Positions 2,527 to 62,260 of a DNA stretch of 64,000 nt are shown in pieces; positions within the stretch are counted from its first letter, which is position 1, and every line of letters begins with the position of its first letter. This stretch comes from an uncultured Candidatus Saccharibacteria bacterium (GTDB taxonomy: Bacteria; Patescibacteriota; Minisyncoccia; Phycocordibacterales; Zambryskibacteraceae): positions 21,873 through 85,872 of the forward strand of contig CAYGCY010000001.1 in NCBI GenBank assembly GCA_964348525.1, given 5' to 3'. The notes beneath the pieces were generated by a model that had not been told where the DNA came from, made no database searches, and worked only from the letters and a program-made list of their open reading frames with translations. Made by a program: the position numbers and the translations under genes.

Positions 2527-3129
2527 TTATGCAAGGAACTTCTTTTTGTACTTCTCCCAGAGTGGAAGAAATTTGTCTCTGAATACTGCGAGAATAAATT
2601 CATCGCAGTATCTGCCATTGCGGAACTGTTGTTCTTTCCTTCGACCTTCCACGATGTAGCCACACTTCTCAAGGCATCTTTTACTACGCCCATTGAAGTC
2701 GTAGACAATAGAGCTAATCTTTCGTAGGTTCAGAGTGTTGAAGGCGAATTCTAGCACGAGCATTTTAGCCTCTGTGCCATAGCCCTTGCTCCACAAATCC
2801 TTTCTGCCTATGAAAGAGCCAGTTGTGGCTGTTCCATGCTGGTGATTGATTTTGTGGAGAGACATCACTCCGATAAGCTCGTTTGTGTCTACCAGTACAA
2901 TTCCAAAAGAGATGTCAGTACTTTTTCTTTCGGAATGTGACTCGACCCACCTAAGCTCGTCCTCTGGCGACATCGGGGCGTTTACCTTCAGAAACTGGTG
3001 TACTTCTGGGTCATTGATCCAGATGGTAAGAAGTGGTACGTCTTCTTTGAGTATTGGGCGAAGATAAACCCTCTTACCCATTCGGAACACAATCCTCTGT
3101 GATTCTCGCTTTTCCTTCATCCGTTTCAT
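2527..3129 (-). CDS. GNAT family N-acetyltransferase (RimJ/RimL-like)
   Basis: acetyl-CoA binding motif region ...GVMSLHKINHQHGTATTGSFIGRKDLWSKGYGTEA... typical of GNAT fold. Confidence 0.7.
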   Translation of the reverse strand: MKRMKEKRESQRIVFRMGKRVYLRPILKEDVPLLTIWINDPEVHQFLKVNAPMSPEDELRWVESHSERKSTDISFGIVLVDTNELIGVMSLHKINHQHGTATTGSFIGRKDLWSKGYGTEAKMLVLEFAFNTLNLRKISSIVYDFNGRSKRCLEKCGYIVEGRRKEQQFRNGRYCDEFILAVFRDKFLPLWEKYKKKFLA

Positions 3130-3412
3130 ACTTGCCTCGTGTTAGGGAAGTGAAAAGAACTATGCTGAATGAAAAATCTCGGCTTTTCATTCAGCCGAGA
3201 TTTTTCTAGAAAGTGTTAGGGAGATTTATACGCTAAAACTATCACGGCTGAATAAAAATGGTTTCTTTTCTTTGGCAACAGAAATAAACCAACATATTTG
3301 TGTGGCCATGTAACCTCTATTAAGCTGTGTATGCGTATTAGGCATAATTACACCTTAGGTTATTTGCTTCTCGAAAGCAAGTCCCCAGATATAGATATAG
3401 ATAGTATAATTT

Positions 3413-3853: not shown

Positions 3854-3924
3854 TGCCAGTTCGTCTAATGGTAGGACGACCGCCTCTGGAGCGGTTAATT
3901 GGGGTTCGAGTCCCTGACTGGCAG
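3854..3924 (+). tRNA. tRNA-Gln (anticodon CUG)
   Basis: 7-bp acceptor TGCCAGT/ACTGGCA with U1:A72 (characteristic of tRNA-Gln), U8, D-stem GTCT/GGAC, anticodon stem ACCGC/GCGGT, loop CTCTGGA (CTG), T-loop TTCGAGT, discriminator G; no encoded CCA. Confidence 0.75.
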
Positions 3925-4105
3925 CAAATGGGCAAAGCCGATTTTCTGCTAGTCAGCAAAGCAATTTATTGCTTTGCGTAGGGTACTCGAAAGGCGCAGG
4001 TGTATTTTTGTTTTGCAAGGCAAAGGCAAAAATACCGAGCAGGGGTCGCGAAAAATTTCCGTCAGGAAATTTATTTGTGACCGAGTCCCTGACTGGCAGC
4101 AAATG
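3907..4105 (+). repeat. 24-bp direct repeat of the tRNA-Gln 3' end (CGAGTCCCTGACTGGCAGCAAATG at 3907-3930 and 4082-4105) bracketing a 151-bp hairpin-rich insert
   Basis: exact 24-nt duplication read in sequence; att-site-like arrangement. Confidence 0.6.
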
Positions 4106-4184
4106 ACTTGAGAAAACAGCTTGCTTTATCTCCACGCTCTGTTATCTTTAGCAGTTCACAGAACTTTATTCGTAATTAAATCAA

Positions 4185-6466: not shown

Positions 6467-6532
6467 TTTAAGAAAAATGGGCAGATTAGGTTCTTGTTCT
6501 TCTTTGGCCCTTTTCTGATATATTTGAGTCAA

Positions 6533-6961
6533 ATGAAAAAGTCTATAATCATTTTAATAGTAATTTTCTTGGCCCTAGGGTTTTTTGTTTTTTCGAATAA
6601 ATTTCAAAAAGAAGGCACCATCTACAATAATGCTTCAGCGAATGACATTGTGGTTGAGTTGCCTTATCCTGATGCTGTCACGGGAAAAGAATTTAGCGTA
6701 ATAGGTAGCGCGCGGGGCTTCTGGTTTTTTGAGGGCTCGTTTCCTTTAGAAGTATTAGACGAAAATGGTAAAAGTATTGCTGTGGGCTACGCTCAGGCAG
6801 AAGGAGAATGGATGACCACAGAATTTGTGCCTTTTAAAGGCGAGATAAAGGTACCGGAGAGCTATATAGGTAAAGCTGTTTTAGTTTTGAAAAAGGATAA
6901 TCCGTCTGGGATACCCGAAAAAGATGCCAGCATTTCTTTCAAATTCAATATTGAATACTAG
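6533..6961 (+). CDS. Membrane-anchored Gmad2 immunoglobulin-like domain protein (ORF track start 6494)
   Basis: N-terminal TM; C-terminal GSARGFWFFEGSFPLEVLDENGKSIAVGYAQAEGEWMTTEFVPFKGEI resembles Gmad2/GerM-associated Ig-like domain. Confidence 0.5.
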   Translation: MKKSIIILIVIFLALGFFVFSNKFQKEGTIYNNASANDIVVELPYPDAVTGKEFSVIGSARGFWFFEGSFPLEVLDENGKSIAVGYAQAEGEWMTTEFVPFKGEIKVPESYIGKAVLVLKKDNPSGIPEKDASISFKFNIEY

Positions 6962-10246: not shown

Positions 10247-10308
10247 AAACCAGAAATGCCTCGTCACGGAGAGATAAACCTCGCTCCTAAACGAGGCATT
10301 TCTGGTTT
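10247..10308 (+). repeat. Hairpin element copy A (conserved loop CACGGAGAGATAAACCTCGCTCCTAA; 18-bp perfect stem)
   Basis: stem AAACCAGAAATGCCTCGT / ACGAGGCATTTCTGGTTT read directly; loop matches family consensus. Confidence 0.8.
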
Positions 10309-10325
10309 ATATTTATATTAAGACG

Positions 10326-14454: not shown

Positions 14455-14520
14455 AAAAACAAAGTCCCACAGCTCGTCATGGAAAGATATACCTTGCCTC
14501 CAAATGAACTACAAGACTTT
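14455..14520 (+). repeat. Probable degenerate copy of the hairpin element (core TCATGGAAAGATATACCTTGCCTCCAAATG, ~22/29 matches; weak stem)
   Basis: similarity to family core read by eye. Confidence 0.3.
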
Positions 14521-20277: not shown

Positions 20278-20289
20278 TTTTATGGCAAT

Positions 20290-27635: not shown

Positions 27636-27697
27636 AAAACAAAAGTACCTTATCACGGAGAGATATACCGCGCTCCTAAATGAGGTATTTTTGTTTT
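27636..27697 (+). repeat. Hairpin element copy B (loop TCACGGAGAGATATACCGCGCTCCTAA)
   Basis: stem AAAACAAAAGTACCTTAT / ATGAGGTATTTTTGTTTT (16/18 paired). Confidence 0.8.
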
Positions 27698-27806
27698 AGA
27701 TAGCATAAAAATGTCCCACTACAGGCAGTAAAACTTGTTTCTAAACGAGATGTTTTGGCCTTGTGTTAAATACAGCTCTAAAGAAGCTAATGATATAATT
27801 ATCCTA

Positions 27807-36534: not shown

Positions 36535-36600
36535 AAAGCAAAGTGCCTCACCACGGAGAGATATACCGCGCTCCTAAACGAAACGCCTTCACTTTTTGCT
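36535..36600 (+). repeat. Hairpin element copy C (loop CACGGAGAGATATACCGCGCTCCTAAAC)
   Basis: imperfect stem AAAGCAAAGTGCCTC / GCCTTCACTTTTTGCT. Confidence 0.7.
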
Positions 36601-36611
36601 AAAAAAGAGTC

Positions 36612-37481: not shown

Positions 37482-38465
37482 ATGAACAAAGAAGATCTTT
37501 CGCGCTATAAAGAAAATCCTAAAACCGCTTATATGGCGGGCCAGCTTGAAGACTTACTAGAAAAACAAAAAGAAGCAGAGGATTTAAAGAATTCAGACCC
37601 ATCTTTCAAGGAACTAGCTGAAGAAGATTTAAAAAACATAGAGATGCAAATAAATGAGCTGAAAAACCACCTTGACGATATCTTGAAAGTCGAGGAGGCG
37701 GAAGAAGAATTCCCAAACGAAATAATTTTAGAAGTGCGAGCGGGGGCGGGCGGTGAAGAAGCGGCTCTTTTTGCAGAAACTTTGTCGAATATGTATAGGA
37801 AGTATGGAGAAATAAAGGGATGGAATAGCACAGAGCTAGATATAGCTACTTCGCCATTAGGAGGATTTAAGGATGCTTCTTTTGAAATGCGTGGGAAAGA
37901 TATTTATAAAACCCTTCGTTTTGAAACAGGAGTGCACAGGGTTCAAAGAGTACCTGCTACTGAAAAATCTGGAAGGGTTCACACGTCTACTGCTTCAGTT
38001 GCCATCTTGCCCGTTAGAAAAGTACACAAACTTACAATAAACCCAGCAGACTTAGAGATTGAATTTTCAAGGGCTGGTGGCAAGGGCGGTCAAAATGTGA
38101 ACAAAGTAGAAACCGCAGTGAGAATAGTGCACAAACCATCCGGCATTATGGTACGTTCTACCGCCCAGCGTAGTCAGAACGCTAATAAAGAAAAGGCGCT
38201 AGAAATTTTGATGGCCAAACTGGAAGAGATAGAAAGAGAAAAAGCAGAGAGTGAGTTATCTAAAGACAGAAAAGGACAAATAGGCACAGGCGACAGGTCT
38301 GAAAAAATACGTACCTACAACTATCTTCAGGACAGAATTACAGATCATCGTATAAAAGAGTCTTGGCACAATATTGGGAAAATACTAGATGGTGAACTCG
38401 ATGATATAGTGAGTGAACTTGCCAAAAGATATGAGGAGGGAACGATGGGTGAGGGAGAGGAATAA
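37482..38465 (+). CDS. prfA: Peptide chain release factor 1
   Basis: PAT tripeptide ([10 protein letters not shown]), GGQ motif ([10 protein letters not shown]). Confidence 0.9.
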
Positions 38466-38481
38466 TTAAGACAGAAAATAG

Positions 38482-38551
38482 AAAATGAGTCGGATATTTT
38501 TCTTTTGGAGAGATATACCGCACTCCGCAGAAAAACACCCCACTCATTTTA
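38482..38551 (+). repeat. Hairpin element copy D, variant loop (TTGGAGAGATATACCGCACTCCGCAGAAAAA)
   Basis: stem AAAATGAGT / ACTCATTTT; core GGAGAGATATACCGC-CTCC conserved. Confidence 0.7.
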
Positions 38552-39962: not shown

Positions 39963-40391
39963 ATGATAGCGGTCTACATTTTCTATGGTTCACTTATTGG
40001 TATGCTCGGCATGCTAACTGTGAAAATGTATGAAGCAAAAAGAAGACGAAGAAGTTTGGTGTACAGAATATTCGTTAATTTTGACGAGATAACTCATGGA
40101 ATGCTTGCAAAAATTATGGGTAATTTGCGAGCAAAAAAAGATAGGTTCGAGGATTTTATGAAAGTAGATTTCAAAAAACTTCTCTATCTTTTGGCTGTGA
40201 AAGCTATTGCTCATATAAGGGAGTCTTATGATAAGATTCGTGAATCCTCAAGAGGGGTGCAGAAATTGAAAGAAAATCCCAAGGTGTCAGCCTTTTTGAG
40301 AGACATAGAGGAAGCAAAAAAAGAAATTAGCAAGAAAAACGAAGAAGAAAAAGCAGAGGAGTCGTTTTTGAGAGACAAATTGCCGGAGTAG
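39963..40391 (+). CDS. Hypothetical protein, N-terminal TM, K/E-rich; stop overlaps tRNA-Thr 5' end
   Basis: ORF only. Confidence 0.35.
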   Translation: MIAVYIFYGSLIGMLGMLTVKMYEAKRRRRSLVYRIFVNFDEITHGMLAKIMGNLRAKKDRFEDFMKVDFKKLLYLLAVKAIAHIRESYDKIRESSRGVQKLKENPKVSAFLRDIEEAKKEISKKNEEEKAEESFLRDKLPE

Positions 40392-40454
40392 CTCAGTTGG
40401 TAGAGCAATACTTTTGTAAAGTATGGGTCGCAGGTTCAAATCCTGTCTCCGGCT
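40382..40454 (+). tRNA. tRNA-Thr (anticodon UGU)
   Basis: acceptor GCCGGAG/CTCCGGC, D-arm GCTC-AGTTGGTA-GAGC, anticodon stem ATACT/AGTAT loop TTTGTAA, T-arm GCAGG-TTCAAAT-CCTGT, discriminator T. Confidence 0.85.
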
Positions 40455-40592
40455 CAAATAAAGTGTTTTATTTGAGTCTGGATTTGAAGGTCGGAGCGAT
40501 GTTTTGCTAGCAAGCAAAACCGCGAGACGGGGTCGCGACCGAGCCGAGTGACGACGAGCCGAGAGTTGTGGCCTAATCCTGTCTCCGGCTCA
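40439..40592 (+). repeat. 18-bp direct repeat of the tRNA-Thr 3' end (AATCCTGTCTCCGGCTCA at 40439-40456 and 40575-40592) bracketing a 118-bp insert homologous to the one downstream of tRNA-Gln
   Basis: exact duplication; both inserts share TTTTGCTAG(C/T)(A)AGCAAA and GGGGTCGCGA blocks. Confidence 0.6.
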
Positions 40593-40638
40593 CTTATTGG
40601 TTTTAGCCCGCGTTCTTTGGTAGTCTGTACTCCTCTTT

Positions 40639-43080: not shown

Positions 43081-44226
43081 ATGAATTCGTATAAAATATC
43101 GAGACAAGAAGAAGACGTACTCAAGAAAAATCTTGAAGAGAGACACGATGCGGAGGCTCTAAGAATAAGGCGCTATTTGGCAATGAAGGATCTTTCAAGA
43201 ACAGATGGAAGCCCTATAAACACTATAGTTAAGAGAGTTTTAGACCGTGAGGAATTTAGCGAATTTGACCTTATAGAAACGCCTGAAATAGTTCCTGCGG
43301 ATATAAGCTTCGATCTTTTTGATTTTCCAGACAACCACCCTGCACGAAGCAAGTCTGATACTTATTACGTAGATGATAAAAATATTTTGCGTACCCACAC
43401 TACTGTGATGTGGTATTACTATCTAAAGCAGGACTCTGTAAAGGAAAGAATGGCGAGAGGAGAGCCGGTGGGATGTTTTTCTCATGGAAAAGTGTATCGC
43501 AAGGACGAAATAGATAGACACCACATGAATGTCTTTCATCAGCTTGATGGATGGTATTTAGCGCCGAAGGATAAAGAAATAATAGGGCAAGAAGAGTTAC
43601 AGGCAGTCTTGATGTCTATTGCAAAGGCGGTATTCGGAGAAACAGTAGAGGGGAAATTTAATCCCGACACATTTCCTTATACCGATCCGTCCCTCGAGAT
43701 GGAAATTAAAAAAAATGACAAATGGATAGAAGTGCTCGGTAGCGGAGTGGTGAAAGGAAGTGTGCTTGAAAAGTTTGGGGTAGATTCTTCGAAATGGAAT
43801 GGTTGGGCTTTCGGTTTTGGTCTTGAGAGGTTGGCGATAGTTAGTATGGAGCTCCCAGACATACGACTTTTATGGTCAGAAGATGAGCGTGTTAAGAAAC
43901 AATTAATTTTGGGAAATAAATATAAAGAAGTTAGTAAATTTCCACCAGTTATTAGAGATATTTCATTTATTGTGGAGAAAAACTTTGTGTTAAATAATTA
44001 TTTTGACGCTATAAGAGATATAGGAGGTGATGAGGTAGAGGAGGTCCATTTGCTTGATAAATACGAAAACGAAGAAAAATTCGGAGCTGACAAAATTAGC
44101 TATACCTTCAGAATCACATACAGAGACATGGACAAGACTCTTACCAACGAAGAGGTAAATGCCATTCATTCTAAAATCGAAGCTATGACTGAACAGGATT
44201 ATGGGGCTAAGTTAAGACTTGTATGA
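43081..44226 (+). CDS. pheS: Single-chain (mitochondrial-type) phenylalanine--tRNA ligase: PheS-like class II catalytic core fused to a C-terminal FDX-ACB anticodon-binding domain
   Basis: class II motifs (FSHGKVYRKDEIDRHHMNVFHQLDG; GWAFGFGLERLAIV) followed by FPPVIRDISFIVEK...LDKYENEEKFGADKISYTFRITYRDMDKTLTNEEVNAIHSKIEAM typical of the FDX-ACB domain normally at the PheT C-terminus. Confidence 0.7.
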   Translation: MNSYKISRQEEDVLKKNLEERHDAEALRIRRYLAMKDLSRTDGSPINTIVKRVLDREEFSEFDLIETPEIVPADISFDLFDFPDNHPARSKSDTYYVDDKNILRTHTTVMWYYYLKQDSVKERMARGEPVGCFSHGKVYRKDEIDRHHMNVFHQLDGWYLAPKDKEIIGQEELQAVLMSIAKAVFGETVEGKFNPDTFPYTDPSLEMEIKKNDKWIEVLGSGVVKGSVLEKFGVDSSKWNGWAFGFGLERLAIVSMELPDIRLLWSEDERVKKQLILGNKYKEVSKFPPVIRDISFIVEKNFVLNNYFDAIRDIGGDEVEEVHLLDKYENEEKFGADKISYTFRITYRDMDKTLTNEEVNAIHSKIEAMTEQDYGAKLRLV

Positions 44227-47811: not shown

Positions 47812-47873
47812 CTAAAGCAAAAGCCTCATTACGGAGAGATAAACCTCGTTCCTAAACGAGGCATTTCTGCTTT
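47812..47873 (+). repeat. Hairpin element copy E (loop TACGGAGAGATAAACCTCGTTCCTAAAC)
   Basis: stem AAGCAAAAGCCTC / GAGGCATTTCTGCTT, imperfect. Confidence 0.7.
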
Positions 47874-47904
47874 GTGTAAATAATAAAAATATATTTTGTT
47901 ACAA

Positions 47905-61695: not shown

Positions 61696-61757
61696 ATTGG
61701 GAAGGCATTGTCACGGAGAGATATGCCGCGCTCCTAAACAATTCCCTCCCAGTCCTT
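61696..61757 (+). repeat. Hairpin element copy F (loop TCACGGAGAGATATGCCGCGCTCCTAAAC), overlapping the rnr 5' end on the opposite strand
   Basis: stem GGATTGGGAAGGCATTG / CAATTCCCTCCCAGTCC (14/17). Confidence 0.7.
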
Positions 61758-61817
61758 TCCGGTTAAAACTTTAACATATCTTGCAGTAGTTCTTAAATTT
61801 GGTACTATAGCGCGACA

Positions 61818-62116: not shown

Positions 62117-62180
62117 GCAAAATAAGGAGCCTTGTCACGGAGAGATATACCTCGCTCCTAAACAAGGCCCCTTATTTTGC
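62117..62180 (+). repeat. Hairpin element copy G (loop TCACGGAGAGATATACCTCGCTCCTAAA)
   Basis: stem GCAAAATAAGGAGCCTTG / CAAGGCCCCTTATTTTGC (17/18). Confidence 0.8.
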
Positions 62181-62260
62181 TTTTACTGATATAAGGGAGG
62201 GGTATTTCATTGTGCTAAAATGTTCTTGGTAGTTATTTAGTATTTAATTAAACGAAAGAA

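Follow-up and report, generated by a model that had tools for sequence, protein, structure and literature searches.

Duplication of the 3' end of a tRNA gene is the usual remnant of integrations of the integrase type, and the extreme 3' end of the tRNA is another known sublocation used by integrases. Group I introns in the tRNAs of Patescibacteria lie at position 35/36, and Patescibacteria have been reported to be without group II introns (PMC13011429). The present analysis concerned a stretch of 64,000 nucleotides (nt) from an uncultured Candidatus Saccharibacteria bacterium (assembly GCA_964348525.1, contig CAYGCY010000001.1, positions 21,873 to 85,872 of the forward strand), called the window below, in which the gene for tRNA-Thr(UGU) is followed by an insert of 118 nt and by a second copy of its own 3' part. 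Results showed that this insert is a short-form member of a family of gene-less elements of about 100-250 nt located directly 3' of tRNA genes. A segment of the insert is complementary to, and covaries with, the T-loop and T-stem of the tRNA itself, a key feature that was absent from an earlier note on the same DNA. The family is widespread and strongly structured, lies by our rating outside the known kinds and is apparently undescribed; no description of this element family was found in the literature, with a small but real chance that a published one exists all the same.

Elements at tRNA-Thr and tRNA-Gln

The window was a segment of a Patescibacteria chromosome, resembling Paceibacteria, with a gene content of housekeeping genes, and three tRNA genes were found, namely tRNA-Thr(UGU), tRNA-Gln(CUG) and a tRNA-Ser at 20289, the last without an insert. 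The tRNA-Thr gene was intact (40382-40454; ARAGORN; Rfam RF00005, 72.9 bits) and was located on the + strand, as were all parts of the two elements described here, with its T-loop (T54-T60) at 40435-40441. The 18-nt sequence AATCCTGTCTCCGGCTCA occurred exactly twice in the window, and two matches to it were obtained in 0 of 100 shuffles, so that the duplication of the tRNA 3' end reported in the earlier note was borne out. The first copy (D1, 40439-40456) ran from A58 of the tRNA to 2 nt beyond the discriminator, and the second copy (D2, 40575-40592), 118 nt away, ran from tRNA position 58 to the 3' end and acts as the 3' strand of a helix, P1.

Immediately 3' of tRNA-Thr, the minimum free energy fold contained a hairpin, H (CTCAAATAAA-GTGT-TTTATTTGAG, 40453-40476), which was AU-rich and was not called by terminator scoring. 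The next part was a box, GGATTT(G), at 40480-40486, identified from family-wide covariation of box and T-loop as the 5' strand of P1 and as the complement of tRNA C56-C62 (CAAATCC). The GGATTT of the box paired with AAATCC of the tRNA's own copy, while the second copy, with T at position 57, gave a poorer fit. A junction GAAG and then helix P2 occupied 40486-40528, as shown by RNAalifold, pair counts and the model alignment; in P2a, GTC (40490-40492) paired with GAC (40526-40528), followed by a GGA/GA internal loop and a hairpin at 40496-40523. Helix P3 (GGTCGCGA…TTGTGGCC, 40531-40573) was variable at the tip and contained G.U pairs at the base, and its 3' end abutted the second tRNA copy. The whole Thr element was matched by two covariance models at 40476-40600 (76 bits for model R1 and 78 bits for model R2). 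The possibility that the Thr insert is itself a further tRNA-like molecule, with GTCGGAG as acceptor 5' strand, was rejected, the string being the family-wide GNCGGAG motif. Perfect 7/7 acceptor pairing was found family-wide in 19 elements, compared with 11.5 in a permutation control, and the Thr element, as a short form, had no acceptor mimic.

The sister element followed an intact tRNA-Gln(CUG) at 3854-3924 (ARAGORN and Rfam) and had the same layout. Here CGAGTCCCTGACTGGCAGCAAATG was an exact 24-nt repeat at 3907-3930 and 4082-4105, starting at C56, and the first copy extended to 6 nt beyond the discriminator. The Gln element additionally carried the extras of a long form at 3947-3977, consisting of hairpin P0 (3956-3977) and of TGCTAGT (3947-3953), which copies the acceptor 3' strand ACTGGCA in inverted orientation, one of the pairs being G.U; the start of the acceptor copy was 42 nt from GAA, in line with the other long forms. 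Its core and second copy were matched at 3979-4109 (R1, 89.8 bits; R2, 75.6 bits) and comprised the box GGGTACTC (3981-3988), GAAAG (3989-3993), P2 (3993-4041), P3 (4044-4082) and D2 (4082-4105).

Both inserts contained …CGAG-NN-GGGGTCGCGA-hairpin-TTGTGRCC-N-A-R-T-CC…, and the pattern GGGTCGCGA-N10-40-TGTGRCC was found in these two inserts only in the 64 kb, with 0 expected. The R2 model, built from 54 elements of other genomes and from no window sequence, was searched against both strands of the window and returned exactly the Thr and Gln inserts (E 4.8e-21 and 2.6e-20, respectively), with nothing further at E<=1. Because the pattern and this window-free model pick just these two inserts, the GGGGTCGCGA block is homologous in the two. 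The earlier note had claimed two related blocks. One of them, GACGGGGTCGCGACC in one insert and GCAGGGGTCGCGAAA in the other, was homologous and formed the 5' strand of P3. The other pair, TTTTGCTAGCAAGCAAAA and TTTTCTGCTAGTCAGCAAAG, was not homologous: TTTTGCTAGCAAGCAAAA was the tip of helix P2 in the Thr insert, TTTTCTGCTAGTCAGCAAAG in the Gln insert consisted of the inverted tRNA-Gln acceptor strand and the start of a different hairpin, and a structure-based alignment matched Thr P2 with Gln 3999-4037 and not with TTTTCTGCTAGTCAGCAAAG. The similarity in this block, the first that the note had named, was a coincidence. Its wider argument against coincidence held, since the shuffles, the pattern expectation of 0 and the R2 E-values exclude a chance repeat, and the likeness of the two inserts that it had proposed to check was statistically supported.

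Secondary structure of the core

The anatomy of the family was established from right-aligned spacers and an alignment of 108 elements. From 5' to 3', the order was tRNA, hairpin H, two further parts in the long forms (the acceptor 3' strand copied in inverted orientation, and hairpin P0, whose loop is often CUGC), the box (GGAYTY plus upstream bases), GAAAG, P2, CGAG-NC-GG, P3, …GACC and the second tRNA copy. The core was a three-way junction on the tRNA-sense strand, P1 - GAAA - P2 (with the GGA/GA internal loop) - GG - P3 (GGUCGCGA…UUGUGACC). Four helices were tested, namely P1 (the box with tRNA positions 57-65), P2a (GNC with GN'C), P2b (the base of the variable hairpin) and P3. Paired cells made up 89.7%, compared with 71.5% in column shuffles and 34-42% with the partners slid by 1-3 columns, and two-sided compensatory changes were present in 18 of the 30 base pairs, across all four helices. 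RNAalifold, applied to a second alignment, found P1 unaided.

The 5' strand of P1, the box, was the complement of positions 57-65 of the upstream tRNA (the 3' half of the T-loop and the 3' strand of the T-stem), and its 3' strand was the second copy of 57-65, which usually continued to the tRNA 3' end. As read from the sequences, box plus GAA was the exact complement of tRNA 54-65. Covariation in P1 was seen at positions 57, 59 and 62: the box GGATTC accompanied GAATCC at tRNA 57-62 in 24 cases, GGACTC accompanied GAGTCC, GGACTT accompanied AAGTCC and GGATTT accompanied AAATCC in 11 cases each, and AGATTC accompanied GAATCT in 4 cases. In the variant GGACGA/GAGTCC, a tandem G.A took the place of two pairs, which is the CGAG/CGAG motif found elsewhere in the fold. 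In elements where the tRNA's own 57-65 and the second copy differed, the better match of the box was to the former 22 times (the Thr element among them) and to the latter 3 times, with an equal fit 7 times. The last base of the core (…GUGACC) directly abutted position 57, where the duplication starts.

Two invariant G.U pairs were present at the base of P3 on the tRNA-sense strand. These pairs, together with the strand asymmetry, indicate from the alignments that the tRNA-sense strand is the folding strand and that it is not conserved in the manner of a double-stranded protein-binding site. Conservation as a double-stranded att site, with dyad core sites around an overlap of 6-8 bp, was accordingly among the rejected candidates, the G.U pairs being invariant on one strand and compensatory changes being present in four helices. 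The sequence left of the junction (TTGTGACC), as read, was not an inverted repeat of the T-stem. The strand asymmetry itself fits RNA or single-stranded DNA (ssDNA) alike.

In about half of the elements, H formed one long hairpin together with the tRNA acceptor 3' strand and its inverted copy. The acceptor copy of the long forms was exactly 7 nt in length and started 40-43 nt before GAA. Long forms, taken together with the second copy, therefore appear to imitate the half of the host tRNA that comprises acceptor and T-arm, the junction standing in the predicted fold where the T-loop would be. A direct copy of the tRNA 5' end was rejected as the source of the acceptor copy, as the similarity ended after 7 nt. 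In about 55 of 91 elements the second copy was of a long type that reached through the acceptor; the others had a short one of about 9 nt.

Distribution of the family

The pattern CGAGNNNNGGTCGCGA-N10-40-TGTGRCCNARTC, with the T-stem left free, was searched in a collection of species-representative genomes (596 Gb) and gave at least 119 loci, each from a species genome, compared with a chance expectation of about 2 by our own estimate. Of the 80 record titles shown, 54 were of lineages of the candidate phyla radiation (CPR; Saccharibacteria, Paceibacteria, Berkelbacteria, WWE3 and others), 16 were of Elusimicrobiota, and 10 were unclassified or other. Nearly all listed matches had a tRNA on the same strand 45-190 nt upstream, covering 17 isotypes with Ser and Leu the commonest. 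Family-wide, the bases 3' of the motif repeated the tRNA from the T-loop on, and in 59 of 95 cases the acceptor strand was identical. A covariance model run on 100 loci gave 136 matches, including tandem arrays and about 35 copies outside the exact pattern. In these unforced copies GGUCGCGA/UUGUGACC could vary, at times with compensation (GGGGCUGCGA/UUGUAGCC), and part of the apparent invariance is therefore due to the search pattern, which forced those positions. The suggestion of a family of tRNA-targeting mini-elements in the earlier note was thus confirmed by further copies in at least 119 species genomes, at 17 isotypes and in tandem arrays.

Among about 2.9 million viral contigs, the specific motif was found in only one (L016, IMG/VR contig 3300033463_005745), at 2900-3319, where at least 3 tandem elements closely resembled the Elusimicrobium tRNA-Ser loci; this contig is probably host DNA or a prophage flank. 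Matches to a loose motif in viral contigs (120) were discarded as chance matches, none having a nearby repeat, and BLAST against phage and plasmid collections produced nothing similar to the element. These results bear on the view that the inserts are decayed att scars of integrase-bearing prophages or islands, which, counted together with chance repetition, is extremely improbable. The duplicated tRNA 3' end is what such integrations leave, but a core of 75-130 nt with compensatory changes recurred in at least 119 species and 17 isotypes, and the one motif-bearing viral contig was a tandem array; no integrase was nearby.

Variant elements with the same P2/P3 core were observed in L176 (5035-5260) and L183 (4540-4620 and 4740-4890). 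In this minority class, the box complemented the acceptor 3' end or the CCA of the upstream tRNA (Lys, Glu) and not the T-loop, and some variants of this type stood in tandem without a T-loop copy. The family thus seems to have at least two target sublocations. An autonomous element of 5 kb was considered in L217 and rejected, as the arrangement was a segmental duplication of the element and its downstream flank (1380-1800 and 6500-6920). The same locus had a tRNA-like 3' end (…GGTTCGAATCCCTCTCGCGGAGCA) without a tRNA call by ARAGORN, probably that of an intron-containing tRNA.

Insertion and spread

The GT2 glycosyltransferase gene next to tRNA-Thr had orthologues with 77%, 73% and 71% identity, and the gene order RF1 - S2 - EF-Ts - small open reading frame (ORF) - tRNA-Thr - GT2 - … - phenylalanyl-tRNA synthetase (PheRS) was kept in those relatives. 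At the orthologous site, L122, L123 and L124 contained tRNA-Thr(UGU) with 30-50 nt to the next gene and without the insert. The Thr insert is a lineage-specific insertion. Contigs of the same species, recognised by an identical neighbour of 142 amino acids, all carried it and differed from the window only in the P3 hairpin, at its tip and at one base-pair position of the 3' strand (GTGGCC and GTGACC); the insertion is fixed wherever its lineage was sampled. A Logan contig of a 98% relative (L121, SRR22746125) had as its first base precisely the one that opens the second tRNA copy (AATCCTGTCTCC…, 1-30). This start may reflect a branch of the assembly graph at the right junction of the element or may be due to chance, and the contig is uninformative on an empty site.

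Across species, cores (GAAAG…GACC) with 88-96% identity followed tRNAs of different isotypes, such as Asp and Val (96%) and Val and Ser (95%), and each box fitted its own tRNA. In pairwise alignments, either GAAAG or the 3' end of the box marked the start of the similarity and GUGACC its end; the second copy, H, P0, the acceptor copy and the T-stem portion of the box were specific to each locus. The Gln core of the window was about 95% identical to the core of L230 in an alignment read by eye (0.94 in a scripted comparison). This likeness took in the tips of P2 and P3 and included one compensatory change from A-U to G-C. The host tRNA-Gln genes of the window and L230 were only about 80% identical, their flanks were unalignable and the neighbouring genes were not orthologous. 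The Gln core would be either under extreme constraint or younger than the divergence of the hosts, and the latter is favoured because the hairpin tips are shared with L230.

Cores more conserved than the host tRNA, and an element fixed within its species, would also be expected if the elements were non-mobile genes for tRNA-like noncoding RNAs, or cis-regulatory RNAs, that arose from partial local duplication of a tRNA. Under this explanation, which we judge to be unlikely, RNase P and RNase Z would process the product through its acceptor/T-arm mimicry, spread would occur mainly by homologous recombination at the tRNA with gene conversion homogenising the cores, and the junction would be a protein- or ligand-binding module for maturation of the upstream tRNA, or else a spare or decoy tRNA 3' half. 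The fixed distance of the 7-nt acceptor copy from GAA in long forms, with a hairpin replacing the D and anticodon arms, agrees with it, as does a box that follows the tRNA's own sequence. However, presence and absence at orthologous tRNAs, tandem arrays and the near-identity of cores, including variable hairpin tips, across isotypes and CPR classes do not fit non-mobile genes, and short forms such as the Thr element have no acceptor mimic. The genes downstream are unrelated, and no known mechanism would repeatedly build matched segments by plain duplication.

Search for enzymes and known RNA families

The 50 ORFs of the window, scanned against Pfam, included no integrase, transposase or reverse transcriptase, nor any gene like TnpA/TnpB or IntI. 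Across the 119 listed loci, no protein family was enriched beside the elements; the top clusters occurred at no more than 9 of the 119, and none was a recombinase cluster. The constant neighbour of the elements was the upstream tRNA. Small stand-alone ORFs resembling GIY-YIG nucleases (about 90-130 amino acids) were observed near elements at 9 of the 119 loci, some adjacent to an element or between two elements (for example L234 837-1106, L186 1862-2215 and L230 646-1047), and they probably reflect background abundance in CPR genomes. A search for autonomous relatives, which was not exhaustive, met with no copy of the repeat far upstream other than the segmental duplication in L217. The recombinase genes for which the earlier note had proposed a search were therefore not found in the window, and its alternative reading of integrase footprints was not upheld, given this result, the lack of an enriched neighbour protein and the conservation as a folded single strand.

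Rfam 15, which includes hammerhead, hepatitis delta virus (HDV)-like, twister, pistol and hatchet ribozymes, group I and II introns, transfer-messenger RNA (tmRNA) and riboswitches, gave only tRNA at threshold in the window. With the core as query region, nothing recurrent was obtained at E<=10 (Thr region) or at E<=5 (8 loci), and ARAGORN called no tmRNA in the window. Several candidates were rejected. Hammerhead, HDV and hairpin ribozymes were compared by eye and did not fit in topology. A tRNA intron, of group I or of the archaeal type, was dismissed, as the upstream tRNA was intact and, in 114 elements, no tRNA was called across the junction after removal of the core in silico. A riboswitch or cis-regulatory leader was set aside, as the downstream genes were unrelated (GT2 and a methyltransferase in the window; no recurrent family across the 119 listed loci). 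A remnant of IS200/IS605 (palindrome-associated transposable element, PATE) did not agree with the long target duplication, the absence of a transposase or TnpB in the window and a left end that was locus-specific. The sequence left of the junction (TTGTGACC), as read, was not an inverted repeat of the T-stem.

Mobilisation at the level of DNA has to be weighed against these searches. The elements may be miniature integrative elements whose unit, [tRNA 57-76 - hairpin - inverted copy - core], is moved by a trans-acting recombinase of the chromosome (tyrosine/Xer-like or HUH); the three-way junction would then be an ssDNA-folded recombination site comparable to integron attC, CTX phage attP(+) and IS608 ends, and the helix of box and 57-65 would reproduce the duplex of the tRNA gene target. 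We regard this as somewhat unlikely. No recombinase was present in the window or enriched near elements, no larger autonomous relative was seen in the non-exhaustive search, and a circle would have only 136-175 nt, which is very small. Tandem G.A motifs and numerous invariant bases left unpaired in the junction are more typical of functional RNA. On the other hand, the direct repeat from the T-loop to the tRNA 3' end resembles classical tRNA att sites, the minority class duplicates the extreme 3' end, and tandem arrays occur. The interior of the elements gives further support: terminator-like hairpins were present in 23 of 90, as if restoring the 3' context of the tRNA gene, G.U(T) pairs were rare in the variable stems, and hairpin tips were often of the GCGAAGC type, hairpins of which are very stable in DNA.

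Proposed mechanism and significance

The explanation favoured here, at roughly even confidence, is that of a non-autonomous mobile element which folds as a single strand, most likely of RNA, and targets the tRNA T-loop by base pairing. The element would recognise positions 57-65 of the tRNA, or as far as 72 for the long forms, in the gene or in the transcript, through pairing of its box, and would be joined by strand exchange at C56|R57. The unit [57-76 - H - inverted copy - core…GACC] would exchange at C56|R57 with a tRNA gene or transcript, and the products would be an intact tRNA whose 3' part was brought by the element, the element, and the displaced original 3' end on the right. Such an exchange would regenerate the target at the right junction (ACC|R57…), which would explain the tandem arrays, and it would make the first copy donor-derived, which would explain the better fit of the box to that copy.

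The folded strand would most likely be RNA, produced by read-through transcription from the promoter of the tRNA, and would work either as a ribozyme or as a scaffold for an enzyme acting in trans. In the window, neither tRNA-Thr nor tRNA-Gln was separated from its core by a site resembling a terminator or promoter, and co-transcription of tRNA and core is plausible there. RNA is favoured because of this absence, the invariance of the junction bases and the recurrence of tandem G.A motifs. Folded ssDNA stays a live candidate because of the terminator-like hairpins, the rarity of G.U in variable stems, the common GCGAAGC-type tips and the reported lack of group II intron reverse transcriptases in Patescibacteria.

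A more far-reaching version, which we consider quite unlikely, is that the core represents a new class of catalytic or guide RNA which, unaided or together with a host enzyme, performs a base-pair-directed strand exchange in the T-loop at C56|R57. Such an element would amount to an RNA-programmed mini-transposon, or a 'T-loop intron with a spare exon', its target specificity being given by a short box re-matched for each colonised tRNA.

Several points weigh against the favoured explanation. No presence/absence polymorphism was found within the species, and no empty Thr or Gln allele was found in the metagenome collection. Several of the invariant positions were forced by the search pattern and varied in the unforced copies. 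G.U pairs were rare in the variable stems, and no bias of G.U over A.C was seen in the mismatches of the box with the tRNA (25 vs 18) or in those of the acceptor copy (10 vs 22); the outer part of the box and acceptor pairing may, for lack of such a bias, be a relic of insertion and not a selected helix. The terminator-like hairpin of 23 of the 90 elements lay between tRNA and core and would limit read-through. Since Patescibacteria are reported without group II introns, one obvious source of reverse transcriptase for a route through RNA is removed. The explanation does not account for how the box would come to match every newly entered tRNA. Neither an excised or circular form nor catalytic activity nor a transcript was observed.

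If the favoured explanation is true, CPR bacteria and Elusimicrobia hold hundreds of copies of a tiny, gene-less, structured element that reads tRNA genes by pairing, rebuilds the tRNA it has entered and mimics half of that tRNA. It would represent a type of mobile or regulatory RNA not seen before and could be a compact, naturally reprogrammable targeting module. In these genomes, annotation and assembly are confused by tRNA 3' fragments and unusual repeats between genes, for which the family provides an explanation. The covariance model is ready for detecting further members, and the family offers a marker of recent gene flow between distant CPR lineages.

Additional observations

A second repeat family was present in the window in 8 copies, each a nested hairpin of the AAATGCCTCGT-CACGGAGAGATAAACCTCGCTCCTAA-ACGAGGCATTT type and mostly located just 3' of genes on the + strand (10254-10321, 14481-14513, 27643-27710, 36541-36608, 38507-38539, 47819-47886, 61701-61768 and 62125-62192). 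The Rfam scan of the window produced no match to this family, which may be a lineage-specific element associated with terminators or resembling repetitive extragenic palindromic sequences. At 43081-44226, a single-chain protein of 381 amino acids resembling PheRS had, as in the mitochondrial enzyme, a class II core and an FDX-ACB domain on the same polypeptide chain, and it was conserved in relatives. Two genes for class-I release factors (PCRF and RF-1 domains), at 51-833 and 37482-38465, were found within 38 kb; the N-terminus of the ORF at 51-833 was short as called, which could be due to a frameshift of the RF2 type or to a wrong start.

Relation to described elements

The elements resemble tRNA-targeting islands and prophages of the tyrosine-integrase type, and the cis-mobilisable elements (CIMEs) derived from them as non-autonomous forms, in their position at a tRNA gene, the direct repeat of the tRNA 3' part from the T-loop, the intact tRNA and the tandem accretion. 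Unlike tRNA-targeting islands and CIMEs, they are 100-250 nt in length and gene-less, with no integrase in reach. Their core is a strand-asymmetric folded junction with covariation, where tRNA-targeting islands have arm and core sites for proteins, and they contain an internal complement of the target. With group I introns (internal guide) and group II introns (exon- and intron-binding sites, EBS/IBS), mobile introns that choose targets by base pairing and reverse splicing, they share a guide that pairs at the insertion point, an element 3' end at the junction, the lack of an own promoter and co-orientation with a structured RNA gene. They differ from these introns in being far smaller, in having no group I or II core, in lying after the tRNA and not within it, in pairing of the guide 3' of the junction and in duplication of the target segment.

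Folded single-stranded ends or sites are also a feature of IS200/IS605 and PATE, integron attC and CTX attP(+), where gene-less derivatives are mobilised in trans and integrons form arrays. In IS608, the cleavage and target sites are read by pairing with an internal guide, as proposed for the box; the guide of the IS200/IS605 type is 4 nt, whereas that of the present elements is 6-16 nt and is accompanied by a long target duplication. In contrast to IS200/IS605 and attC, the elements have no pair of left-end and right-end hairpins and no TnpA/TnpB or IntI nearby, and their core is far more conserved in sequence.

Among structured RNAs, the tRNA-like domain of tmRNA, viral tRNA-like structures, mascRNA and YrlA are comparable to the long forms, which appear to mimic the acceptor/T-arm coaxial stack and could be cut out by RNase P and RNase Z. 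In the present elements, however, the junction replaces the T-loop, the stems copy the neighbouring tRNA and are not specific to the family, there is no match to tmRNA or Rfam, and short forms are without the mimic. Ribozymes next to tRNAs or repeats, namely HDV-like theta ribozymes 3' of phage tRNAs and hammerhead retrozymes, are comparable in the position of a small structured RNA directly 3' of a tRNA and in the direct repeats around a gene-less unit, which could be set free as a small RNA; the elements differ from both in topology, in giving no match to HDV, hammerhead, twister, pistol or hatchet, and in being chromosomal in CPR and Elusimicrobia, where the ribozymes belong to phages or eukaryotes. 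The bridge or seek RNA of IS110 and the omega RNA of TnpB and IscB likewise combine a conserved scaffold with variable segments complementary to the target, and the omega guide is the flank at the end of the element. Unlike these guide RNAs, the present elements have no attached recombinase or nuclease gene, adopt another fold and hold both the guide and its complement within one short element.

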